A stretch of DNA of 64,000 bases from Candidatus Thorarchaeota archaeon (GTDB lineage Archaea > Asgardarchaeota > Thorarchaeia > Thorarchaeales > Thorarchaeaceae), in assembly GCA_030669595.1 (NCBI GenBank), contig DAOVDG010000001.1, positions 6,047 to 70,046 of the forward strand, given 5' to 3'. Shown here one piece after another: positions 1,800 through 64,000 of the stretch. Made by a program: the position numbers and the translations under genes. The notes under the pieces are model-generated. The model worked only from the letters and a program-made list of their open reading frames with translations. It had not been told where the DNA came from and ran no database searches. Each line of letters begins with the position of its first letter. Positions within the stretch are counted from its first letter, which is position 1.

Positions 1800-2261
1800 T
1801 TGCCTGATGATGATCTATCAGAGGAGGAACTGGCTAAGGCAGTCAAAGGCAAGACTTTGCAGGTATATTGGTACATGCTGAGGCATCTCACGCCGATGAC
1901 AGCCAGAGAGATTCAGAGGGGAACTCAGTTGTCCAGCCCGTCTCTTTCAATGCATCATCTTGAGCGACTGAAAAACCTAGGACTTATCGAGAAGAACGTG
2001 CATGGTGAGTATTCGCTTGTCCGAGACGTTCGCGTCGGAGTGCTCAGGTACTACATTGGCAAGGGCAGGCTCATGGTTCCCAGATTCCTGTTCTACGCGA
2101 CCTTCTACACATCGGTGACTGCAGCGCTGTTCACACTGCTATGGTGGTTCATCGATTGGTACTCCTCTGTACTGATCATACTCCTTGTTTCAGTGTGTGC
2201 AATTCTCTGGATGGAGGCAATTAGAACGTGGAGGGAGCAGCCTTTCGAGGAGGAGGAGTGA
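1800..2261 (+). CDS. membrane-anchored winged-helix transcriptional regulator (HTH N-terminus, 2 TM helices at C-terminus)
   Basis: The N-terminal 80 aa resemble a wHTH (MTAREIQRGTQLSSPSLSMHHLERLKNLGLIEK). The C-terminus has hydrophobic segments FLFYATFYTSVTAALFTLLWW and VLIILLVSVCAILWM followed by an acidic tail. TTG start. Confidence 0.5.
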   Translation: MPDDDLSEEELAKAVKGKTLQVYWYMLRHLTPMTAREIQRGTQLSSPSLSMHHLERLKNLGLIEKNVHGEYSLVRDVRVGVLRYYIGKGRLMVPRFLFYATFYTSVTAALFTLLWWFIDWYSSVLIILLVSVCAILWMEAIRTWREQPFEEEE

Positions 2262-3220
2262 TGGATTACATGACTAGAACTGATTGGTTTGGGGACATTG
2301 GGTACAGGCAATCCATAGCAGGGCTCACACTCAGAAAACCACACGTGCTCCTGCTCCTACTGATGCTAGTCAGTTCCTTGGCGCTGTCTGCTGTTTCAAT
2401 GATGGAACTCCATGACAATCAATGCGCACTGGCTCGTATAACAAACACCAGGGCAGAAATGCCCCCCACACTGAGTCTTACGTACTACACTCACTGGAAT
2501 TCAACTAAGGTTGATGTGAATTCTGGGGACCAACTCGAAGGTGACCACATAATCCTGAATGCCACGTGGAGCCCAAGCACCGAAATTAATCGAACAAGGA
2601 TTGAGGTTAATGCCACAGCAATTCCAACTGTGAAATACAGCGAGCAAAATGGCAACACGGTCGAGATTGATACACGGGCACTTGGCAGCAACTTCACATG
2701 TGTGATTAACTCAACGATTTGGCTTCATAATGGCACTACTCTGGCCGAGCTGGTTCCAAACGTGTTTCTGGGCAATTTCTTTGTGCCAGTGGTCGAAGTA
2801 GTTTCACCGAACGGGCACGAAGTGTGGACCGGCGCCAATAATATCACATGGAATGCTTGGGACCTCAACGAGAACGAAGAACTGACCTTCGAGGTATTGG
2901 TTTCCTCAGACTCTGGTGTAACCTTTCAGCTTCTGTCCACTGGCCTGACTGAAACTAGGTTCTTATGGGACTGCAGTACATTCCTAAATCTTAGCACCTA
3001 CGTAGTGGAAATCCGCGTCAGTGACGGCATCTTCTCTTCGCATGATGTTTCTGATGCACCCTTTAGAGCAGGAGAGATTGGACAACCCGATACAACGACA
3101 ACAACCTCAACAACAATGGAGGAGATTGACCCCCGAGTTATCATGTTTCTGGCAGTACTCATCATATCAAGTGGTTTCATCGCGTTTGTTGTGTACTATG
3201 CTTCCAAGAGCTGGGTATGA
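2228..3220 (+). CDS. N-glycosylated cell-surface protein (signal anchor, Thr-rich linker, C-terminal TM anchor)
   Basis: N-terminal hydrophobic segment and more than 10 NxS/T sequons. TTTTTSTT linker followed by VIMFLAVLIISSGFIAFVVYY at the C-terminus. This is the architecture of archaeal S-layer-like glycoproteins. Confidence 0.5.
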   Translation: MEGAAFRGGGVMDYMTRTDWFGDIGYRQSIAGLTLRKPHVLLLLLMLVSSLALSAVSMMELHDNQCALARITNTRAEMPPTLSLTYYTHWNSTKVDVNSGDQLEGDHIILNATWSPSTEINRTRIEVNATAIPTVKYSEQNGNTVEIDTRALGSNFTCVINSTIWLHNGTTLAELVPNVFLGNFFVPVVEVVSPNGHEVWTGANNITWNAWDLNENEELTFEVLVSSDSGVTFQLLSTGLTETRFLWDCSTFLNLSTYVVEIRVSDGIFSSHDVSDAPFRAGEIGQPDTTTTTSTTMEEIDPRVIMFLAVLIISSGFIAFVVYYASKSWV

Positions 3221-38303: not shown

Positions 38304-39164
38304 ATGTCGAAACCCGACCCAATGAAGACCTACGCGACCCACAAGTGTCGTCTCTTGAGAGTGTACGGCCTTACTGAACACGAGAAGCTCTTCCTGTTTC
38401 GTTTTGATGACTCCGAGATAGCTCAGTCTTGGCGGTTCATGCCTGGTCAGTTTGTAGAGCTCTCCCTCCTTGGCCATGGAGAGGTGCCAATCTCAATCTG
38501 CTCCTCTGCTAGAAGGATGGGGTTCTTTGAGCTCTGCATTCGCAAGGCGGGTCGTGTCACCTCTGAGATTCACAAGCTCAAGCCTGGTGATTTGGTGCGA
38601 ATTCGGGGGCCCTATGGGAATGGCTTCCCAATGGACAGGTTCTATGATAGGGACCTACTCCTTGTAGCTGCTGGACTCGGCATGGCCCCACTCAGGTCGG
38701 TTTTCCTCTACGCACTAGACAACCGCTGGCTGTTTGGCAACATTACGATTATCAACAGCTCGAAGCTGGGCAAGGAGTTGCTTTTTGCAAAAGAGCTGAA
38801 AGCAATGAGGGATATCGCAACAGCTGAGAATATTGAAATCATTCAGACTGCTACTAGAGACCCTGACTGGGGCGGCTTGACGGGCCGCGCACCGATGCAT
38901 CTGGACAAAGTGAATGTTGACCCCACGAAGTGTACGGCCGCGCTTTGCGGGCCGCCTCGCATGTACAAGTCAATGTTCGAACAGATGATTGCACTAGGCT
39001 ATGACCCACGGTACATTTTCGTCAATCTTGAACGTCGCATGAAGTGCGGGGTTGGCAAGTGTGGACACTGCAACATTGGCACAGCCACTTCGTGGAAGTA
39101 TGTCTGCAAAGATGGACCTGTGTTCGATTATTACGACATCATCAGTATTCCGGGGTTGATCTAA
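38304..39164 (+). CDS. hydG: hydrogenase gamma subunit (FAD/NAD(P)-binding ferredoxin-NADP reductase-like with C-terminal 2Fe-2S)
   Basis: FNR-like fold with C-terminal CGVGKCGHCNIG. The stop overlaps the next start as TAATG. Confidence 0.8.
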   Translation: MSKPDPMKTYATHKCRLLRVYGLTEHEKLFLFRFDDSEIAQSWRFMPGQFVELSLLGHGEVPISICSSARRMGFFELCIRKAGRVTSEIHKLKPGDLVRIRGPYGNGFPMDRFYDRDLLLVAAGLGMAPLRSVFLYALDNRWLFGNITIINSSKLGKELLFAKELKAMRDIATAENIEIIQTATRDPDWGGLTGRAPMHLDKVNVDPTKCTAALCGPPRMYKSMFEQMIALGYDPRYIFVNLERRMKCGVGKCGHCNIGTATSWKYVCKDGPVFDYYDIISIPGLI

Positions 39165-40009
39165 TGGAACGCTCGAAGATGATACTCCCCGACCATGAAA
39201 TAATCGAGGAGTGCAGAGATGTCTGCAGAGCCACTGTAGGTGTATACGTCCTCACATCATGCTACGGCTGCCAGCTTGTTATGGCTACGGTCCAGAAGAT
39301 TATGGAGGTGGCAAACCTTGTGGACTTCAAGTGTTTCTATATGGTCTCGAGCAAGAGTTCTCTGCACGAACCAGTAGACATCGCCTTTGTCGAAGGATCG
39401 GTTTCCACTGAAAAAGACCTTGAGGAATTGAAAGAGGTCAGAAAGAATGCAAAGGTGCTGGTCGCCATTGGAGCATGTGCAGTGAACGGCGGTGTCCAGA
39501 GCTGGTCCGAAGGCGACCTTGACTACGATAAACTCTACGCATCAGTCTATGGCAATTCCAAGATCAAGTACAAGGGCTTGCAGGCTGCTCCCATTGATTC
39601 CTACGTAAAGGTCGATTATTATCTTCCCGGTTGTCCTCCAGAAGAAGACGAGATAATGTACTTCTTGAGCACATTTCTCTTCGGTTCGTATCCTGAAGAA
39701 ATCGATTATCCTGTGTGCGCCGAGTGTCGCCTTGCGGGCAATCCGTGCATTCTGATTGAACGAGATGCTCCTTGCCTTGGCCCAATTACTGTGGCTGGGT
39801 GCAAGGCGCGATGTCCAAGCTTTGGTGTTCCTTGCATAGGCTGCAGGGGTCCAGTGCCTCATGACAATTCGTGGTTTGATTCGCTGGCACTTGCATTTAG
39901 GAACAAGGGTTACTCAAAGGATTACATCCGGGAACGTATGAAGATATTCTGCTCCCACGATAAGAATCTCGAAGAGCGACTGGACAAAGCATTCGGGAGG
40001 AAGAAGTGA
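39164..40009 (+). CDS. hydD: NiFe hydrogenase small (delta) subunit
   Basis: Cys motifs CYGCQ, GACAVNGG, CPP and CAECRLAGNPC. The start was moved to the ATG at 39164 (MERSKM), which overlaps the hydG stop. Confidence 0.8.
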   Translation: MERSKMILPDHEIIEECRDVCRATVGVYVLTSCYGCQLVMATVQKIMEVANLVDFKCFYMVSSKSSLHEPVDIAFVEGSVSTEKDLEELKEVRKNAKVLVAIGACAVNGGVQSWSEGDLDYDKLYASVYGNSKIKYKGLQAAPIDSYVKVDYYLPGCPPEEDEIMYFLSTFLFGSYPEEIDYPVCAECRLAGNPCILIERDAPCLGPITVAGCKARCPSFGVPCIGCRGPVPHDNSWFDSLALAFRNKGYSKDYIRERMKIFCSHDKNLEERLDKAFGRKK

Positions 40010-41322: not shown

Positions 41323-41482
41323 ATTTGTATACTGTTTACCCGTTGTACTGGGGCCTCTCTAGTATGGTGACCTTATCAGAAAAGGATGCCAAGGTGGGTT
41401 TGATCGGACTCTTCCCCATCCTTATCCCCTTCCGGTAGCTTCTTTCGCCACTTCTTGGCAATCTTTCGGGTGGTGAACGATA

Positions 41483-44409: not shown

Positions 44410-45213
44410 ATGGAGCAACAGTTCCTTTTCGAAGTCGAGGACTTGGCAGTGAAGTACCCCAATGGAGAACTGGCTCTCTATAATGTGAACTTCAGTATCA
44501 AGTCACCCACATTCATGGCCATAGTAGGACCAAATGGTTCGGGCAAAAGCACTCTGCTAAAGACATCTTTGGGTCTAATCAAACCCGTTCGAGGACAAGT
44601 GAAGGTCCTTGGTTATGACTCAGTTCGCGAGAACAAGAAGATACGGAAGCTTGTTCGTTACGTACCTCAGCGAGACCGCATTGGGCTTTCTGTGCCTTTG
44701 AAAGTTAAAGACGTTGTATTGATGTCTAGGTTGCTGAAGAAGCCGCCGCCACGGTTCGCATCTTCCAAGGACAATGAAATGGCTCGGGAATCTCTGAAGA
44801 GAGTGAACATGGCAGACCTCTGGGATCGACCCTTTCCTGAGCTCTCAGGTGGGCAACGTCAGAGGGTGTTAGTTGCCAGAGCTCTCGCGGGTGATGGACC
44901 AATCCTGATGTTGGATGAACCTCTCGCTGGGACTGACCATGAGAGCCAAGACATGATTGTGGAGGCGCTCGGTGATTATCGCAGTGAGCACGAAGTGAAC
45001 ATAGTTATGGTCACACACGATCTCAACCCAATTCACACACTAGTCCAAGATGTGCTATTGCTGAAGAATACAGTGGTTGGTGTCGGTACACCTTGTGACA
45101 TGATGGATGTCGATCTTCTGAAGAAAATCTATGGGCCCACAGCGAAAGTGGTCGAGTATGCAGGACACAAATACTGTGTCACGCACGATTCGGGAGTCGA
45201 TCGTCATGATTGA
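44410..45213 (+). CDS. metal ABC transporter ATP-binding protein (ZnuC-like)
   Basis: Walker A GPNGSGKST, signature LSGGQRQRV, Walker B LMLDEP. Confidence 0.85.
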   Translation: MEQQFLFEVEDLAVKYPNGELALYNVNFSIKSPTFMAIVGPNGSGKSTLLKTSLGLIKPVRGQVKVLGYDSVRENKKIRKLVRYVPQRDRIGLSVPLKVKDVVLMSRLLKKPPPRFASSKDNEMARESLKRVNMADLWDRPFPELSGGQRQRVLVARALAGDGPILMLDEPLAGTDHESQDMIVEALGDYRSEHEVNIVMVTHDLNPIHTLVQDVLLLKNTVVGVGTPCDMMDVDLLKKIYGPTAKVVEYAGHKYCVTHDSGVDRHD

Positions 45214-46150
45214 TATCTTAATTGAAGTTCTCTCAATTCCCTTTGTGCAGCGCGCCCTCATAGGTGCCCTATTGATTGCAATAGTTGCCTCTGCAAGCGG
45301 CACATTCCTGGTCTTTCGGGGCCTCTCATTCATGACATCTGGGGTTGCTCATGCTGCACTGGGTGGCGCCGCTCTTGGGCTATTCCTGCAGCACTCTGGT
45401 CTGGTACCTTGGTTTGATCCCATTATTGGAGCGCTGTTGTTTAGTGTATTTGTTGCATTGGTTACTGGATATGCGGGGGAAACTGGCATGACACAGAAGA
45501 TGGAAGTCGCTGTTGGTGTGTCTTTCGCTCTCTCGATGAGCATAGCGGTCTTTTTGATGTATTATATTCCTCCCACGCAAGTGCCGCAGATATGGGGGTA
45601 TCTCATCGGTGATCTCCTTCTGCTTGACAATTTCGATATAGTCCTCTTGGCCATAACAGCCATAGTACTAGTTCTAATTACACTCGTGTTCAACAAGGAG
45701 TTCATCTACGTGAGTGTTGACATGGAGGGATCCATTTGTCACGGCATGAATGCTCGAGCTTACCATTACCTTATGCTCATTACCTCGGCTCTAGCAATCG
45801 CGCTTGCAACCAAAGCGGTGGGCGCAATCTTGGTCTACGCAATTATGGTTGCACCAGCTGCTGCGGCAAGTGAGCTGATAAAATCAATTCGCGGCATTTT
45901 CATTGCTGTTTTCGTCATTGCATTACTGTCTGAGCTGATGGGATTGGTTGCATCCTTTACAGTTAATGCCTCGCCAAGCGCAATCGCAGGAATACTCGCA
46001 GCTTTTTCGTATGTGATAGCAATGCAAATCAAGAAGCTACGAGATCGCGTGAGTATAGACCTAGACCAATTTCCGCAGCACGATGAAGAAGCGACCCTAG
46101 TTCTCCGCGAAGCATTGGACACGAGCGCGCATGAAGGGCATGACCACTAG
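45206..46150 (+). CDS. metal ABC transporter permease (ZnuB-like)
   Basis: Eight to nine TM helices. The start overlaps the ATPase stop. C-terminal His-rich tail (SAHEGHDH). Confidence 0.8.
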   Translation: MIDILIEVLSIPFVQRALIGALLIAIVASASGTFLVFRGLSFMTSGVAHAALGGAALGLFLQHSGLVPWFDPIIGALLFSVFVALVTGYAGETGMTQKMEVAVGVSFALSMSIAVFLMYYIPPTQVPQIWGYLIGDLLLLDNFDIVLLAITAIVLVLITLVFNKEFIYVSVDMEGSICHGMNARAYHYLMLITSALAIALATKAVGAILVYAIMVAPAAAASELIKSIRGIFIAVFVIALLSELMGLVASFTVNASPSAIAGILAAFSYVIAMQIKKLRDRVSIDLDQFPQHDEEATLVLREALDTSAHEGHDH

Positions 46151-57538: not shown

Positions 57539-57763
57539 GATAAAATAGCCATCTTCTACAGCAAAAGGGTGAAATCGCGTATTTCAGAATATGTTGGTTG
57601 CAACCCATCACGGACTCTATCTTGGTCTGAAAGGCCACAAACTCATCGAGCTGATTCAAGGCATGAATTCAAGTTGATCAATCTACCGAGTTTTTGTTTT
57701 TCATTCCCCAACTCCTTTATGGGGCGGCATGCTATGAGTAGTTAGCCAGAAGGATGTGATTCT

Positions 57764-58439
57764 GTGAAGGTTGACGTTTCCAAAGCAATGGCAATCAAGC
57801 TGTCTTCCGACCTTCCCCCTGACCCAGTCTTTGACCCTCAGTACCGAAGGGTATGCAACAGCTGCCAATAACTTGTACAATCTTGGGTATTTTGTAGGTG
57901 GTTATAACATACTGCTTGGAATTGAGTGGTGTGGACGTTCAATGCTGATTGCTAGAGCGTGCACGTAACTTGGTCGCCGCCAGTTGGACGGAGACAGAAA
58001 ACGCTTGTGGAGAGGACGTGAGACTAGTCGCAGATTCAGTAGGATCTGCAGAGCAGACCTCAATGAATCAGGAACCGAACATCAGTCAAGGACATTGATG
58101 TCCAGGACTGTACAAGTTTCGGGCAACGGCTCCGAATCGAGGTCTAGATTTGACTGAAGGGAAAATAGTTGTGGCTCTGAAGAATGCGCTCCGGTATATC
58201 CCTGAGAGTCTGCATAAAACGTTAGCCCCAGAGTTCCTGAATGAACTGATAACTTGAGGAAGGATCTATGGATATCGCTACCGACCTCCAGGAACAATCA
58301 AGGCGAAGCCGGTTGATGAATACAAGGAAAACACCATCGACATCGTGGACCCATCAGAAGCCGAACGCTATGTTGATTTGATACTAGAACACTTGCGATT
58401 GAACTTCAACGCAGAGAGTAAGCTCGATGAGGGAGACTA
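57764..58439 (+). pseudogene. hutU: decayed duplicate of the hutU N-terminal (urocanase N-domain) region
   Basis: The frame starting at GTG 57764 reads VKVDVSKAMAIKLSSDLPPDPVF..., compared with MIDVSKAMRVKLSSKLPPNPVF in hutU at 60970. A second homologous block at 58171..58330 reads ALKNALRYIPESLHKTLAPEFLNELIT*GRIYGYRYRPPGTIKAKPVDEY with an in-frame stop. A divergent insert of about 300 nt separates the two blocks. Confidence 0.55.
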
Positions 58440-60832
58440 GCGAATCTTCAGACACTCCCATTGAGAGGGAAGGTCTTGAATCAACGATACGACAACGGCG
58501 CCTCACGCCTGAGGAGAGAGATGCAATAGTTCGAAAGTATAACGAAGAATTGCTAACTCCCCATGAAAGAGATGCAATTCTCGGAAAAGTCAAGGCCGAA
58601 TTGCAGGCAAGTGACAATCCGGACAGGACAGTGAAGGATTGTAAAGGACATGCGATGACCTCCGTTGAAGGAGAAAATCTAGTCGATGTCACACAAGACC
58701 GGAGAGATTCGCATTTTGCTTCTATCCAAATGCCAGAATTCAATGGAACGAGAATAGAGTCGTATGGTCAACTTGAGAGCCTTATTCGCAAGCGCTTTCC
58801 TGGACTTAAGCATAACAGCCACTTCGGAGAATGGATGAAACGGGCGTACATCTATTTCGAGGTCATGTCTATATTCGTCGAAGAGCATCCTATTGAAGAT
58901 TCAGCGATCTCCAAGATTGCCCGAGATAAGGGAATATCTACCTATGCTATTAGAAAGTGGATTCTGAAGGGTGGGCTCCCTTTGGTCTTCAAGTACTTGA
59001 ATGAGGTTTCTAAGAACCAACAAAGTGCAAGAAACATCCGGGAGCGACTTGGTGAGTTTCAAAGTGCTGAGAGAGTCCGCAAGAGGCTGAAAGAAATCGG
59101 TATGTTTGAGTCTATCAACCTGTGGCCAACAGCCGAGAAGCAATGGACTAACTTGAGATTGTACTATCAGGCTTTGCCTTTTCTTGAAAGTGGTATGTTG
59201 CAGTGTGATATCGACCGCAGACTTGGACTTACTGCTACCAAAACGAAAAGATGGGTTGACGGAGGTCTTCCTTGGCCTGTCCGAATTGTCGTTGAGCCCA
59301 ACTCCGAGAGAAGCAAAATACAGTCTGGGAGGTTGATGGTCAACATCCACGAATTCAAAATGGATGGAATAGTTGTATCCTCGTCACATCAGTTACGTGC
59401 GTTAATCACTGGACATTATCTTGGACTAGCAATGCGTAACGACATTGACTCGCTCATCTCAGATTTCGAAGCCTACTTAGCTCTCCGTGCTAAACTAGGT
59501 GAAAGACAGACCGTCAGGTATAGTGAACTCAGAAAAATGGCTGAGGAACTGGAAATCTCAGTAGGTAAATCGAGAAGATGGGCCATCGATGGAGAGATTC
59601 CTAGGATTTGCCTTCGTATTGAGCAAGTTGCATTAAACAAGCGATTAGTAGCGAAATTTCGAGAAAGATTGCTATTCCAATCGATGGAGCAATTTTCACA
59701 GTTGATGAATCAGCTCTACATCGCACCTCATTTGGAAAAATGGAGCAACTACAGCGAGATCGAAGTCTATTTGGCCAAATACTACAGATTTTTGGACATG
59801 TATGAATCAGGAATGTCCCAAAAGACCATTGCAGAAATGCTAGAAATCGATGAATCCACGGTGTATCATTGGACCAGAGGAAGATTATCCAAAGCACTAT
59901 ACCTGTTACAGAGATTTCCCAGAAAACAACCAAGAGAGAATAGGAAGTGGCTACCTACTCGTTTGGATGGTCTAGTTTTTTCTGACTACATCGAGGTTCC
60001 AGATAGAATCAGTGATTACTCCGAGGTAATTGAAGTGTTTCGTCAGTTACAAATGAATCCCCAAGACATCATGTATGTTGTTGGATTTACTTTATCAGAT
60101 GGGTATATTCAATTGACTAGCAAGACTTCCTTTTCTTTAAGGAGCACATTGAGTCAGAATTATGATTGGTCGAAACTGATACTGGATGATGTATCAGATT
60201 CTCTATCGTCATTAGGGCCTAGCCGAGTATTGAGCATTAAACGATCTGATGATAATATATGGGAACTAGCAAACTCAAGCCCTCTGTTTGTCTGGATTCG
60301 AGAAGTGATTTTCGGGCTCGGCCCAGATGAAACGAAGACCTATTCACCAATAAAAGCTGATTGGATCCTGACTTCATCCAAAAGCGCCCGAATTGCATTC
60401 ATGCAGGGACTCGCTGATGGCGACGGGTATGCCTCGCCAGCTGCACAGCGCATTGGGATTGGGTCTCTAGTAAATAGACACCTTATTCGAGATCTCCTGA
60501 AGACATTAGACATCAATTCCGTTCTTCATTCAAAGGGAGTCGAAATAATCCGTCATGAAGATATCCGCCGCGCAGCCATGCTTCCCCTTTTCAAGAACGC
60601 AACTGGTCGGCTCGAGAGTCTGTTCGAGCTGTGTGATATGCTTGATGCAAGACCCAAGAGAAAACGTTTTACTCCCAATGAGATTGAGCTAATACTGAAA
60701 CTTCGGGAGCATGGAATGTCCTATGATCAGATTGGTCTGCATCTTTGGAGGTACTACGGCAATTCGAGGAACAAATCTACTATTGGCAGAATCATCAGAC
60801 AAAACCAGCCTGAATCTAAGAAACAGTCATAA
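58427..60832 (+). CDS. 801 aa protein with at least five repeated HTH modules and a C-terminal double-LAGLIDADG (homing endonuclease-like) domain
   Basis: Recurring units such as ISKIARDKGISTYAIRKWILKGGLP, LGLTATKTKRWVDGGLPWP, LEISVGKSRRWAIDGEIP, IAEMLEIDESTVYHWTRGRL and GMSYDQIGLHLWRYYG. LAGLIDADG-like motifs YVVGFTLSDGYIQ and FMQGLADGDGYASP lie about 110 aa apart. Confidence 0.7.
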   Translation: MRETSESSDTPIEREGLESTIRQRRLTPEERDAIVRKYNEELLTPHERDAILGKVKAELQASDNPDRTVKDCKGHAMTSVEGENLVDVTQDRRDSHFASIQMPEFNGTRIESYGQLESLIRKRFPGLKHNSHFGEWMKRAYIYFEVMSIFVEEHPIEDSAISKIARDKGISTYAIRKWILKGGLPLVFKYLNEVSKNQQSARNIRERLGEFQSAERVRKRLKEIGMFESINLWPTAEKQWTNLRLYYQALPFLESGMLQCDIDRRLGLTATKTKRWVDGGLPWPVRIVVEPNSERSKIQSGRLMVNIHEFKMDGIVVSSSHQLRALITGHYLGLAMRNDIDSLISDFEAYLALRAKLGERQTVRYSELRKMAEELEISVGKSRRWAIDGEIPRICLRIEQVALNKRLVAKFRERLLFQSMEQFSQLMNQLYIAPHLEKWSNYSEIEVYLAKYYRFLDMYESGMSQKTIAEMLEIDESTVYHWTRGRLSKALYLLQRFPRKQPRENRKWLPTRLDGLVFSDYIEVPDRISDYSEVIEVFRQLQMNPQDIMYVVGFTLSDGYIQLTSKTSFSLRSTLSQNYDWSKLILDDVSDSLSSLGPSRVLSIKRSDDNIWELANSSPLFVWIREVIFGLGPDETKTYSPIKADWILTSSKSARIAFMQGLADGDGYASPAAQRIGIGSLVNRHLIRDLLKTLDINSVLHSKGVEIIRHEDIRRAAMLPLFKNATGRLESLFELCDMLDARPKRKRFTPNEIELILKLREHGMSYDQIGLHLWRYYGNSRNKSTIGRIIRQNQPESKKQS

Positions 60833-60969
60833 ATTCAGGATACCGCACGAAGCTTAAACTCTCAATACACTTGTTAAGAAGATAAAGTGCGCCTAGCGCT
60901 CCTAAATGCTAACTGAAAGCATTTTATGCCAAAACCACATGAGTTTAGTTGTCATTGGTGGTGTAAACA

Positions 60970-61365
60970 GTGATTGATGTGTCTAAGGCGATGAGAGTGA
61001 AACTATCTTCCAAACTCCCTCCCAATCCCGTGTTTGAACATGGAATTAGGAGAGCTCCAGATAGAGGTTTTAACCTAACCGAGTCTGAAACAGCAACTGC
61101 GCTCAAGAATGCTCTGAGGTACATCCCGTCAGAGTTGCATGAACGACTCGCTCCGGAGTTTCTTGATGAGCTCATGAAAAGAGGGCGTATCTACGGGTAC
61201 CGATATCGCCCCTCTGGCGCAATTGAAGCAAAGCCAGTCGATGAATATGAGGGAATTCTTGAAACAAGAGCGCTTCAGCTTATGATTGATAATAACTTGG
61301 ATTTTGATGTCGCGTTATATCCATACGAGCTGGTCACTTACGGAGAGCATAATCAGGCCTACTGA
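60970..61365 (+). CDS. hutU: urocanate hydratase, N-terminal 131 aa fragment (GTG start; frame ends at an in-frame TGA inside a conserved motif)
   Basis: IRRAPDRG and TRALQLMIDNNLDFDVALYPYELVTYGE match the HutU N-domain (IRAPRG and [24 protein letters not shown]). Confidence 0.6.
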   Translation: MIDVSKAMRVKLSSKLPPNPVFEHGIRRAPDRGFNLTESETATALKNALRYIPSELHERLAPEFLDELMKRGRIYGYRYRPSGAIEAKPVDEYEGILETRALQLMIDNNLDFDVALYPYELVTYGEHNQAY

Positions 61366-61367
61366 TC

Positions 61368-63026
61368 ATGCACGGCAAGAGTGGGCAGGTCTGTCAGAAC
61401 TGGATGCAGTACAGGTTGGTCAAGAAGTACTTGGAAACAATGACTGGGGAACAAACATTGGTTGTCAGCTCTGGGCATCCTATAGGGCTCTTTCCATCGC
61501 ATAGGAATGCGCCTCGTGTGATATCGACCAATGGTCTCATGGTTGGCATGTTCGACACTCCTCAGGGTTTTCATCGCGCAGCAGCGATGGGGAATACGAA
61601 TTATGGCCAGATGACAGCTGGTGGCTGGATGTACATTGGTCCTCAAGGCATCGTTCACGGAACATACATCACACTGTTGAATGCAGGCCGACTGTACCTC
61701 GACCTACCAGACGATAAGGACCTGCGCGGCAAGGTTTTCCTAACATCAGGCCTTGGGGGTATGAGTGGAGCGCAGCCAAAAGCAGTTGAGCTTGCTGGAG
61801 GAATCGGAATAATTGCAGAGGTTGACAAGAGTCGCATAATCACTCGAAGCGAACAGGGGTGGCTTAGCAAACACTCTGACAACCTGCCTGAGATTTTTGA
61901 ATGGGTTAGGGTGTACCGCGCTAAGAACAAGCCGGTTTCAATTGGCTACCACGGCAATATTGTTGATCTCTGGCAATATACTGTAAACAATGATATCGCC
62001 ATAGAACTGGCGTCAGATCAGACCTCTTGTCACGATGTCTATGGTGGTGGATACACGCCTCAAGGAGTCACGTTCGAGGAGGGCAGAGAGCTTCTCAAGA
62101 GTGACCGAAAACGATTCGACGAGCTGGTAAATGCATCCCTCCGCAAGCAGTTCGAACTCATCCGAACCATGACCGAGCGCGGCACGTACTTCTGGGACTA
62201 TGGAAACAGCTTCATGAAAGCCGTCTTCGATGCAGGCGCAAAAGCCATTGCGAAGAATGGCAAGAACACGAATGATGGATTCATCTTCCCTTCATACGTA
62301 GAGGACATCATGGGGCCGATATGCTTCGACTTCGGCTACGGTCCATTTCGCTGGGTCTGTCTGAGCGGGTTACACGAGGACCTGATTGCCACCGACAAAG
62401 CTGCAATGTCGCACATAGACCCCACGCGTAGAGGCCAGGATCGCGACAATTACATCTGGATTCGAGATGCGGAGAAGAACGCCCTTGTAGTTGGTTCCGA
62501 AGCCAGAATCCTGTATGCAGATGCGGAGGGACGGGTTAACGTAGCGCTCGAATTCAACAAGATGGTGAAGGAGGGCAAAGTGGGCCCGATAATGCTAGGT
62601 CGTGATCATCATGATACTGGAGGTACCGATTCGCCATTCAGAGAAACTGCTAATATCATGGACGGCAGTAATGTTACCAGCGATATGGCTCATCAGTGTT
62701 GGGCTGGAAATGCGGCGCGAGGGATGACGCTGTGTGTCCTATCAAATGGCGGTGGGGTTGGCACTGGAAAGGCAATCAATGGTGGTTTTGGCTTGGTTCT
62801 TGACGGCAGTGACCGCGTGGACAACATAATCCGACTAGCGGTGGACTGGGATGTGATGGGTGGAGTCGCGCGTCGTGCGTGGGCAAGAAACGAGAACGCT
62901 GTTGAAACAGCGGTTGAGTGGAATAGGACTTTAAGCGGCAGAGGGCAAATCACTCTACCATTCACTCCTGAAGATGGACTGGTGGAAGGACTCGTTAGAG
63001 CGGCGCTTGAAAAAAGGAAGGGATGA
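61368..63026 (+). CDS. hutU: urocanate hydratase, main body (different frame from the N-terminal fragment)
   Basis: GQVCQNWMQYRLVKKYLETM...NAPRVI...GQMTAGGWMYIGPQGIVHGTY...GLGGMSGAQP is collinear with HutU from the ARNW motif onward. The HutH gene follows. Confidence 0.8.
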   Translation: MHGKSGQVCQNWMQYRLVKKYLETMTGEQTLVVSSGHPIGLFPSHRNAPRVISTNGLMVGMFDTPQGFHRAAAMGNTNYGQMTAGGWMYIGPQGIVHGTYITLLNAGRLYLDLPDDKDLRGKVFLTSGLGGMSGAQPKAVELAGGIGIIAEVDKSRIITRSEQGWLSKHSDNLPEIFEWVRVYRAKNKPVSIGYHGNIVDLWQYTVNNDIAIELASDQTSCHDVYGGGYTPQGVTFEEGRELLKSDRKRFDELVNASLRKQFELIRTMTERGTYFWDYGNSFMKAVFDAGAKAIAKNGKNTNDGFIFPSYVEDIMGPICFDFGYGPFRWVCLSGLHEDLIATDKAAMSHIDPTRRGQDRDNYIWIRDAEKNALVVGSEARILYADAEGRVNVALEFNKMVKEGKVGPIMLGRDHHDTGGTDSPFRETANIMDGSNVTSDMAHQCWAGNAARGMTLCVLSNGGGVGTGKAINGGFGLVLDGSDRVDNIIRLAVDWDVMGGVARRAWARNENAVETAVEWNRTLSGRGQITLPFTPEDGLVEGLVRAALEKRKG

Positions 63027-63031
63027 ATACC

Positions 63032-64000
63032 ATGGTTGTTGAGGTTGATGGCGAGAGCCTGACAATTGAAGATGTGATTCTAGTCGCGCGTCAGAATGAA
63101 CAGGCTGAGCTTGCAGAGTCTGCACGCAAGAAGATCCACAAAAGTCGCAATGTGGTGGAGTCTGCGATAAGCGCGGGTCGGACAATCTACGGCGTAAACA
63201 CTGGCTTCGGCAGTCTTGCCAACGTTTCGATAGGCGCGGATGACGTAGCTAAGCTCCAAGTGAACATCATCAGGAGTCACAGTGCAGGAGTAGGGCCTCC
63301 ATTCTCCAAGGAGGTTGTGAGGGCAATTATGCTCTTACGTGCAAATGCTCTTGCTAAGGGATATTCGGGCGTTCGGATAGAGATTATAGAAACCCTACTT
63401 CAGATGCTCAACCGAGGCGTGATTCCAGTCGTTCCTCAGCAAGGTTCTGTCGGCGCAAGTGGCGACCTTGCCCCTCTTGCTCACATGGTCTTGGTTATGA
63501 TGGGTGAAGGTACGGCTTACTATGGTGATGACAAGGGCGATGGGAAGACAGCGCTGATGGTGGCTGGCATTGACCCCATTACACTTCAAGCAAAGGAAGG
63601 TGTTGCTCTAATCAACGGCACTCAACCAATGACGGCAGTTGGTCTTCTTGCTGTTCATGATGCGATGACGCTTGTCCATGACGCATCCGTTGCAGCTGCC
63701 ATGAGTCTAGAAGCTCTCAAGGGAACCCGTGTGGCCTTTGACGAGCGAATTCACGCGATACGAGCGCATGAGGGCCAACAGGACGTTGCGAAGGCATTGA
63801 GAGCGATTCTCGAGGACAGCGAGATCAATCAATCCCATGCGGACTGCGGCAAGGTTCAAGATGCATATTCGCTCAGGTGTATCCCTCAAATCCTAGGAGC
63901 ATCACTGGATACCATCAGGTATGTTCGGAGCGTTCTGGAAACAGAGATTAATTCCGCCACTGACAATCCATTGGTCTTCCCAGATGCTGGCGATATCCTC
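63032..64000 (+). CDS. hutH: histidine ammonia-lyase (3'-truncated by window end)
   Basis: GFGSLANV and the MIO-forming GSVGASGDLAPL motif. Continues past position 64000. Confidence 0.85.
   Translation, partial: MVVEVDGESLTIEDVILVARQNEQAELAESARKKIHKSRNVVESAISAGRTIYGVNTGFGSLANVSIGADDVAKLQVNIIRSHSAGVGPPFSKEVVRAIMLLRANALAKGYSGVRIEIIETLLQMLNRGVIPVVPQQGSVGASGDLAPLAHMVLVMMGEGTAYYGDDKGDGKTALMVAGIDPITLQAKEGVALINGTQPMTAVGLLAVHDAMTLVHDASVAAAMSLEALKGTRVAFDERIHAIRAHEGQQDVAKALRAILEDSEINQSHADCGKVQDAYSLRCIPQILGASLDTIRYVRSVLETEINSATDNPLVFPDAGDIL

Follow-up and report, generated by a model that had tools for sequence, protein, structure and literature searches.

In this study, we analyse a 64-kb stretch of DNA (64,000 nucleotides, referred to as the window) from a Thorarchaeota-like Asgard archaeon, and in it the urocanase gene hutU together with a large open reading frame (ORF) located directly upstream. 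We find that hutU is interrupted by a 32-nt insertion with the layout of an archaeal bulge-helix-bulge (BHB) intron. The upstream gene, a free-standing 801-aa ORF, combines a double-LAGLIDADG core with helix-turn-helix (HTH) modules, and together with the first hutU exon and the insertion it appears to be foreign to the surrounding locus. This arrangement is probably the outcome of collaborative homing between a free-standing LAGLIDADG endonuclease and an ORF-less BHB intron, a reading in which we infer splicing, nuclease activity, target site and repair pathway from comparative evidence. Public contigs and loci used for comparison are designated by L and relative proteins by P, each followed by a number.

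A preliminary description of this DNA had recognised an intact hutU 5' ORF at 60970..61365 followed by a frame break, which the ORF list and translations bear out, and had taken the break as the end of a 131-codon unit. The break is in fact a 32-nt insertion at 61346..61377 within the conserved peptide TYGESGQV, between TYGE and SGQV, and the final six codons of the supposed 131-aa ORF (HNQAY and the stop) are intron sequence. The interrupted gene consists of the following parts:

60970..61345, plus strand: hutU exon 1, of putative donor (foreign) origin, codons 1-125 and the first base of codon 126

61346..61377, plus strand: predicted BHB mini-intron of 32 nt, AGCATAATCAGGCCTACTGATCATGCACGGCA, interrupting TAC GGA GAG AGT after the first base of GAG

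61378..63026, plus strand: hutU exon 2, of apparent recipient origin, with Pfam Urocanase_N, Urocanase and Urocanase_C

61330..61388, plus strand: predicted BHB motif, with helix h at 61330-61339/61379-61388, helix H at 61340-61343/61372-61375, bulges at 61344-61346 and 61376-61378, and hairpin h' at 61347-61371

Removal of the 32 nt from hutU of the window produces ...ELVTYGESGQVCQNW... and a 674-aa ORF, the predicted spliced junction being ...CTGGTCACTTACGGAG joined to AGAGTGGGCAGG.... Uninterrupted Asgard and bacterial hutU genes read ...ELVTYGESGQVCQNW... (TAC GGA GAG AGT GGN CAG) and encode TYGESGQV at the same spot. Insertions of 30-32 nt occupy this codon in 12 distinct alleles from public contigs, and full-length hutU ORFs of 671-685 aa are obtained by intron removal at 8 of 8 loci. 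Among the top 120 clusters of hutU N-terminal proteins in the protein database, 35 terminate right after TYG; a metagenome pattern scan for inserts at this position (site 1) returned four loci only. The interrupted hutU is not a pseudogene, because nonsynonymous divergence (dN) between the window and L005 is low (0.13-0.18) despite saturated synonymous divergence (dS), and dN/dS between the window and L086 is 0.13 in exon 1 and 0.10 in exon 2.

All 12 alleles follow a common layout. On the 5' side, the exon supplies CUGGUCACUU (h) and ACGG (H); a 3-nt bulge AGN, cut after AG, leads into the intron hairpin h'. On the 3' side, the intron supplies H' as CCGU or CCGG, and a 3-nt bulge NNA, cut after NN, leads into the exon sequence ARGUGGNCAR (h). 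Each allele obeys the order ...CUGGUCACUU, ACGG, AG, intron, A(A/G)AGYGG, and the hBHBh' geometry and spacing are identical in 12 of 12. Cutting after the second base of each bulge restores TYGESGQV in all of them, with intron lengths of 30, 31 or 32 nt; the cbf5 intron of Crenarchaeota is reported to follow the same rule, with cuts between the second and third bulge bases (PMC2738675). The unconstrained minimum-energy fold calculated by RNAfold is the textbook hBHBh' with 3-nt bulges in L087, L094 and L098, and nearly so in L099, where the first bulge measures 4 nt.

Covariation points in the same direction. In an alignment (A2) of 59 columns, which holds only 12 sequences and was laid out by hand in structural register, 86.7% of cells are paired versus 22-48% with the partner columns slid; nine pairs are changed on both sides, every helix shows compensatory changes, and none of 500 shuffles was as good. 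The exon-intron helix H takes part in this covariation, a synonymous exon change TAC>TAT in L099 (AUGG) being matched by CCGU>CCAU in the intron. All 12 intron alleles share the unchanged exon 10-mer CTGGTCACTT, which lies outside the eight commonest forms found in 61 intronless alleles, and the exon-exon helix h forms 8-10 of its 10 pairs in intron alleles versus 4-8 in intronless ones. Synonymous sites of exon 1 thus look constrained for pairing in intron alleles. We infer that the hutU insertion is an archaeal BHB intron, the splicing of which is predicted.

A second site in hutU, between NYGQ and MTAG and about 80 codons downstream of site 1, carries related 30-nt BHB introns (L096 5380-5700, L091 6600-6645, and L101). 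These three alleles restore NYGQMTAGG on cutting, and 34 of the top 120 hutU N-terminal protein clusters terminate right after NYG(Q). Both introns are present in L096 and L101, and the hutU of L096 is annotated as three genes; the window has no intron at the equivalent position (about 61600). The H core at site 2 (ACGG/CCGU or AUGG/CCAU) and the exon context UUA(C/U)GGA-N preceding the cut are those of site 1, which suggests intron transposition to a site able to form helix H. In public gene calls, hutU is missing or split into two or three fragments wherever introns are present (e.g. L005 13834-16117, L110 13597-15822). Histidine degradation is therefore probably under-annotated in these Asgard genomes, and the capacity for it understated in Asgard metagenome-assembled genomes.

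The gene upstream of hutU stands at the coordinates given in the preliminary description, as the ORF list confirms:

58427..60832, plus strand: free-standing 801-aa ORF with four HTH modules, a double-LAGLIDADG core and a C-terminal HTH_38

60047..60646, plus strand: double-LAGLIDADG core, aa 541-740, with motif 1 YVVGFTLSDGY at 60074..60106 (aa 550) and motif 2 GLADGDGYA at 60407..60433 (aa 661)

60656..60805, plus strand: C-terminal HTH_38, aa 744-793, Pfam 35.5 bits against a cut-off of 27

Pfam profiles HTH_38, HTH_23 (aa 454-484) and LAGLIDADG_3 (24.1 bits, cut-off 22.5) all score above their cut-offs, and the homologue P0002 matches LAGLIDADG_3 with 37.7 bits in two stretches, so that both halves are covered. 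The double-LAGLIDADG part of the earlier description stands, with motifs at aa 550 and 661. Instead of five or more repeated HTH modules there are four of the 'RW..G' type (about aa 163-185, 262-284, 371-393 and 468-490), all N-terminal of the core, and the HTH_38 at the C-terminus. The ORF had further been regarded as a domain combination not described before. A word-index protein search, which found two relatives only, gives the same false impression of uniqueness; with HMMER, an exhaustive search reaches 271 cluster representatives at E<=1e-3, of which many are full length and measure 650-1540 aa, and 87 at the stricter E<=1e-30. None of the matches that have a source name bears a functional one, the library behind the exhaustive search being without names. 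NCBIfam and PADLOC gave weak HTH matches only, a viral-contig scan with the family profile gave only remote LAGLIDADG matches (26-29% identity), and a PDB sequence search with the nuclease core returned nothing significant.

Both catalytic Asp residues (...SDG... and ...GLADGDG...) are invariant in 25 family members of 28-67% identity. With an alignment of these 25 sequences, the AF2 model of the nuclease core reached a predicted local distance difference test score (pLDDT) of 94.2 and a predicted TM-score (pTM) of 0.89; with a 3-sequence alignment the pLDDT was 46 and the model unusable. Foldseek matched the core model to the TliVMA intein endonuclease, I-DmoI (TMt 0.59-0.71, about 190 columns), I-SceI and E-DreI at E of about 1e-6, and its matches also include the bI3 maturase and WhiA (3hyi). 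The model thus predicts a LAGLIDADG fold (alpha-beta-beta-alpha-beta-beta-alpha, twice) for the core. A dN/dS of 0.11-0.31 over the HTH-repeat and LAGLIDADG regions indicates purifying selection on the ORF. An intein or intron-encoded protein was considered and rejected: 137 nt lie between the end of the ORF and the working hutU start downstream of it, its frame differs from that of the upstream hutU remnant, and the intron measures only 32 nt. The ORF is accordingly not embedded in hutU, as had been proposed, since it lies upstream of the working start codon.

How this gene and the intron came to lie together can be read from a locus on the contig of P0039, L102. It has the order ecfA2-ecfT-TPR-hutU without ORF and without intron, its flank is 87% identical to the window, and its hutU provides the candidate intronless target sequence CTCGTGACCTACGGCGAGAATGGGCAGGTCTGTCAG. 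L102 represents the empty site, a related genome with an uninterrupted hutU such as the preliminary description had anticipated. Comparison with L102 divides the region upstream of the working hutU as follows:

57764..57851, plus strand: putative recipient hutU remnant, codons 1-29, VKVDVSKAMAIKLSSDLPPDPVFDPQYRR, 82% nt identity to L102 2024-2268 (over 57619-57851 of the window, including the upstream spacer)

57852..58124, no strand assigned: 273-nt insertion in the remnant, absent from L102, where CGAAGG and GCTCCG are contiguous

58125..58325, plus strand: putative recipient hutU remnant, codons 30-95, matching L102 2264-2464 at 89.6% nt identity and interrupted by an in-frame TGA (CGA>TGA, ...LIT-stop-GRIYGY)

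58326..58426, plus strand: apparent left end of the cassette, about 20 nt for which no counterpart was identified, then a leader common to L086 and L092

60833..60969, plus strand: spacer between ORF and hutU, apparently imported with the cassette; the window and L086 are 100% identical over 60740..61139

The decayed upstream copy had been seen before; its single in-frame TGA and its insert (of about 273 nt) hold, its extent is 57764..58325 rather than 57764..58439, and the duplicated unit comprises codons 1-95 and not 131 codons. The two hutU 5' blocks are related, as expected from the earlier description, at only about 70% DNA identity, because their origins differ. Both blocks of the remnant taken together are 92% identical in amino acid sequence to P0039 (the hutU of L102) versus 69% to the working hutU of the window. 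Repeats marking the ends of the element were looked for at 58340..58430 and 60833..60969, where they had been suspected, and none were found.

The 273-nt insertion has imperfect 24-nt terminal inverted repeats (57863-57886/58102-58125, 79% complementary) and an imperfect 5-nt direct repeat (AAGGG/AACGG); neither the window nor the fetched loci contain another copy. It looks like a miniature inverted-repeat transposable element, a transposon-like reading adopted since L102 lacks the insertion and the host copy is a pseudogene. It was also considered as a BHB intron and rejected, for although a CGAA/UUCG helix can be drawn by hand, the flanking helices fail to form. On the side of the ORF, homology in the leader begins at 58340 (L092) and 58348 (L086) of the window. 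Upstream of the leader, L086 and L092 lack a hutU remnant and have about 212 nt of unrelated sequence, a left junction different from that of the window. At about 2850-3020 of L092, corresponding to 60957-61040 of the window, 84 nt covering the hutU start (codons 1-24 and the 13 nt before them) are repeated exactly in tandem, which is either a real recent duplication or a metagenome assembly artefact.

Identity to L102 switches at the intron site. The remnant (codons 1-95) is 82-90% identical to L102. The working exon 1 of the window is 57-79% identical to L102 at the nucleotide level, but 88-100% identical to L086; for exon 1 of the window, L086 and L092 together the range against L102 is 57-82%. 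Beyond the intron site, the first 110 nt or so of exon 2 are 97-100% identical to L102, and identity is 93-98% over about the next 300 nt in the window, L086 and L092; further downstream in the window it falls to 77-85%. The same switch occurs in L086 and L092. The stretch of about 58326..61377 (leader, ORF, spacer, exon 1 and intron) is on this evidence foreign, with the intron site as its right edge, and the identity pattern is that of a homing-type conversion tract. The upstream copy is the recipient's original and the downstream 'intact copy' the imported one. Among the window, L086 and L092, dS is 0.05-0.16 for the HTH-repeat and LAGLIDADG regions of the ORF, and between the window and L086 it is 0.11 in exon 1 and 0.46 in exon 2. 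The low dS of the cassette together with the differing left junctions therefore argues for more than one recent transfer or resolution event. In this respect L102 and the sister contigs support the idea, put forward in the preliminary description, of a homing or insertion scar with a duplicated 5' domain; the frame break as duplication edge, the block length, the assignment of copy origins and the embedding of the ORF had to be revised.

The association of ORF and intron recurs. Four diverged lineages have a homologue of the ORF directly upstream of their intron-bearing hutU: the clade of the window, L005 (60% identity to the window's ORF), L110 (Thorarchaeota SMTZ1-45, 44%) and L100/L101 (36-40%). 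Two further loci carry fragments just upstream of an intron-bearing hutU. In L087 (4039-4368), hutU codons 1-79 run into the final 30 or so ORF residues to give a fused stretch of 109 aa, and in L096 (4654-4955) about codons 3-25 of hutU precede about 77 residues from the C-terminus of the ORF; in both, the surviving part of the ORF is the C-terminal HTH_38 stretch. These loci appear to be the window's scar architecture at a later stage of decay, and the pattern is consistent with an endonuclease gene that cycles through invasion, decay and loss while the intron stays. Altogether, the ORF or a remnant of it is present in 6 of 11 intron lineages versus none of 62 intronless loci (Fisher p=2.7e-6); a value of p=0.002 for the association assumes about 15 Asgard intronless loci, a figure estimated from record titles and not tallied.

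From these data the following course of events is proposed. The hutU intron would be excised from the mRNA by EndA and the exons ligated by RtcB, giving a normal 674-aa urocanase. The 801-aa endonuclease would cut intronless hutU alleles at or beside the intron insertion site, and the intron, by splitting the target, would protect its own genome; this protection is suggested solely by the position of the breakpoint. In an L102-like ancestor, the double-strand break would have been repaired at its right end through exon 2 homology, with copying leftwards from a distant Thorarchaeota donor of intron, exon 1, spacer and endonuclease gene. The left end would have been joined non-homologously within the recipient exon 1 at codon 95, and the hutU 5' fragment would be duplicated because this left-hand resolution was non-homologous. 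The outcome would be the order found today: old hutU codons 1-95, decaying and with the 273-nt insertion, then endonuclease gene, imported exon 1, intron and native exon 2. Beyond this locus, the chances are even that Asgard (Thorarchaeota-type) archaea host an active collaborative-homing system, in which a large HTH-decorated LAGLIDADG family, sometimes paired with a HerA-like protein, may spread BHB mini-introns across distant lineages and leave 5' scars behind.

Several observations weigh against collaborative homing or against splicing at this locus. The L102 hutU, which was sampled as the 'recipient' allele, is itself a decaying pseudogene: it has lost 83 nt between direct repeats CATCGC, with a shift of frame, at about 2670 of L102 (61489-61571 of the window), and about 69 nt more at about 2908 (61810-61877 of the window). 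Ordinary recombination halted by the heterology of the intron could also account for the breakpoint at the intron, which would then not mark a double-strand break. In the window, L086 and L092 helix H is degenerate (ACGG/ACGG, i.e. two Watson-Crick G-C pairs and two purine-purine mismatches) and folding to minimum energy does not give a clean BHB; the spacing is kept in the window, which amounts to a relaxed motif. L088 has a weak H and a competing intron-internal helix. [quoted passage not shown] Five exact spliced hutU proteins were absent from a collection of 15 billion proteins. Finally, the available flank shows no ORF in 5 of 11 intron lineages (in L099 this flank reaches only about 100 nt upstream of hutU), and therefore the intron persists or spreads without the ORF.

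The nature of the ORF itself admits another reading. It exceeds classical LAGLIDADG enzymes in size by a factor of 3-5 and contains many HTH modules. In L005 (6912-10004) and L110 (6523-10011) the gene has a long form that encodes 1198-1277 aa, about 520 of them in an acidic N-terminus of low complexity, and that overlaps the end of a gene for a HerA-like ATPase of 1030-1162 aa. The HerA-like gene matches DUF87 with 27.9 bits, its copies in L005 and L110 are 27% identical (E=7e-96), and compared with L096 the two genes amount to an insertion of 7.6 kb immediately upstream of hutU. The ORF of the window has neither the partner gene nor the N-terminal extension. Size, HTH modules and HerA-like partner fit a regulator or a larger mobile or defence module no less than a simple homing endonuclease. 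The ORF may be a domesticated, WhiA-like LAGLIDADG/HTH DNA-binding protein that regulates transcription of the hut operon or works within a HerA-linked module; its link to intron and tract may then stem from ordinary recombination stopping at the intron heterology. Its five HTH-type modules, its constant co-oriented position directly upstream of hutU-hutH, its purifying selection, the match to WhiA (3hyi) and the HerA-like partner in L005 and L110 would all agree with such a role. Against it, a regulator would hardly keep both catalytic Asp invariant through 25 members of 28-67% identity, be present in the window and absent from its close relative L102, show a cassette dS below the host background, or be missing from all 62 intronless hutU loci; and the remnants in L087 and L096 speak of repeated decay, as expected of a selfish gene. 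We consider a regulator or HerA-linked module unlikely, and retain it as the main alternative because of the many HTH modules and the HerA-like partner of the long forms.

It is improbable that hutU is a split or recoded gene without splicing, in which the 131-aa and 552-aa ORFs are translated apart by termination-reinitiation (UGAucAUG) or the ribosome frameshifts or hops over the hairpin. An ATG does follow the stop of the exon 1 frame by 2 nt in the window and in L086, a GGA stands before the insert and at its end in L093 and L095, and the insert is a hairpin. Known translational bypass elements contain hairpins as well. In L088 and L094, however, a UAA in the exon 2 frame lies immediately before the conserved AGU GGU CAG and there is no start codon; re-initiation is ruled out in these alleles because UAA directly precedes AGU. 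L087 has no Gly landing codon, and the landing codons of the window, L086 and L005 are GGC or GGT, not GGA. Moreover, a slippery heptamer is lacking, residues encoded by the insert are unconserved while the RNA helices H and h covary, synonymous sites of exon 1 are frozen for pairing, and inserts of 30, 31 and 32 nt restore one and the same peptide only under the BHB cut rule. A translational hop or frameshift and a re-initiating split gene were therefore rejected on the strength of L087, L088 and L094.

Less probable again is a hairpin that represents a DNA-level footprint or a tiny palindromic transposon, with hutU a pseudogene in these genomes. This would draw on the direct repeat of about 10 nt (ACTTACGGAG...ACTTACCGGAG) that surrounds a 20-nt palindrome in L095, on the common exon context UUA(C/U)GGA at both insertion sites and on the visibly decaying hutU of L102. 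Yet both halves of hutU are open and under strong purifying selection across lineages with saturated synonymous sites, and the 'direct repeat' of L095 is explained by the 3' part of the intron pairing with exon ACGG (H), where it covaries with the exon. The decayed upstream copy is very unlikely to be a fragment of a tandem paralogue unconnected with the arrival of the ORF, for although the independent 84-nt duplication in L092 indicates that the region duplicates readily, the remnant matches the empty-site allele of L102 (92% aa) and not the adjoining working copy (69%), it abuts the left end of the cassette, and L087 and L096 have the same order of remnant, ORF remnant and hutU.

The window is gene-dense with a G+C content of about 49%. 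Candidatus Thorarchaeota is the source of the nearest named relative of the 801-aa ORF and of many hutU relatives. Around the locus, the genes are arranged as ecfA1-ecfA2-ecfT, a TPR gene, the hutU-like remnant (57764..58325), the 801-aa ORF (58427..60832), hutU (60970..61365 and 61368..63026) and hutH. The latter was identified by its translation:

63030..64000, plus strand: start of hutH (histidine ammonia-lyase), continuing past the end of the window

The order hutU-hutH is also found in L005, L087, L088 and L110. No tRNA genes are present in the window. Three overlapping same-strand ORF pairs on the plus strand (38304-40009, 44410-46150 and 1800-3220) could be further interrupted genes. 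A naive BHB scan of both strands of the window gave 14 and 16 matches versus 6-19 in shuffles, i.e. no enrichment, and missed the window's own relaxed motif. Within this chance number of matches falls an intergenic 31-nt stretch of formal BHB geometry at 41388-41418 on the minus strand. Further copies of the hutU hairpin were not found in the window.

BHB introns in archaeal mRNAs have been reported essentially for cbf5 and for a Haloferax 5' untranslated region (PMC7714728; PMC12397907). In the searchable literature we found no report of BHB introns in protein-coding genes of Asgard archaea, in hutU, or with an endonuclease partner. With many alleles, and with 35 and 34 protein clusters ending at its two sites, hutU would be a second coding-gene host of archaeal introns. 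At this locus the splice motif is backed by evidence of covariation grade, and an empty site, a donor-type tract and intermediates in decay link the spread of the intron to one endonuclease gene. If true, this would be the first mobility mechanism for archaeal mRNA introns, in the archaeal group closest to eukaryotes, and the spread of such introns would become an experimentally addressable question. The long recognition surface of the endonuclease family with its many HTH modules may in addition be of interest to meganuclease engineers.

Among known proteins, WhiA is a domesticated bacterial LAGLIDADG protein, a conserved housekeeping regulator that has lost its catalytic residues. The ORF family resembles it (PDB 3hyi) in having a LAGLIDADG scaffold followed by a C-terminal HTH, but keeps both catalytic Asp, is patchily distributed and decays. 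I-DmoI and other LAGLIDADG endonucleases are encoded within BHB introns of archaeal rRNA genes. The predicted fold is that of I-DmoI (TMt 0.59-0.71), as are the single-chain double-motif architecture, the two acidic residues and the association with a BHB intron. Here, in contrast, the gene lies outside the intron, about 0.5 kb upstream, and encodes proteins of 801-1543 aa with four N-terminal and one C-terminal HTH; the intron resides in an mRNA, and long forms are paired with a HerA-like ATPase gene.

The closest intron is that of the crenarchaeal cbf5 pre-mRNA, a BHB intron reportedly described by Watanabe in 2002. Such introns are short (16-44 nt), ORF-less, located in coding sequence and often of relaxed motif (Yokobori 2009, PMC2738675). 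The hutU introns agree with them as short, ORF-less BHB introns in coding sequence with a relaxed motif, predicted to be cut between the second and third bulge bases, and in occurring in lineages with a hetero-oligomeric EndA of broad specificity. They differ in their host gene, which encodes a catabolic enzyme, in their occurrence in Asgard archaea (Thorarchaeota), in occupying two sites with UUA(C/U)GGA-N before the cut, and in being linked physically and evolutionarily to a homing-endonuclease gene. For the cbf5 intron we know of no mobility agent.

With regard to mobility, in the mobE/I-TevIII trans-homing of phage T4, and with other free-standing endonucleases, the endonuclease mobilises itself and flanking DNA, a neighbouring element included, via double-strand-break repair (PMC2790892). 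The hutU cassette would likewise be self-mobilised together with flanking DNA that includes a neighbouring element; unlike in T4, the element co-mobilised would be a BHB intron, and the transfer would be between distant archaeal lineages (about 30% nucleotide divergence in exon 1). Collaborative homing was described for psbA of cyanophages, where the free-standing F-CphI acts with an ORF-less group I intron (Zeng, Bonocora & Shub 2009; PMC6083498). There, the insertion site of alleles lacking the intron is the target of the enzyme; the intron shields the allele that carries it and owes its mobility to the enzyme (PMC6083498). As in that system, a free-standing endonuclease gene stands beside an intron-containing gene and the tract ends at the intron site, where cleavage is presumed in our case. 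The hutU system differs in that its setting is archaeal and not phage, its intron is a BHB intron expected to be spliced by proteins and not a self-splicing group I intron, its endonuclease is of the LAGLIDADG and not the Endo VII-like type, and its left end appears to have been resolved non-homologously, leaving a duplicated 5' gene fragment.

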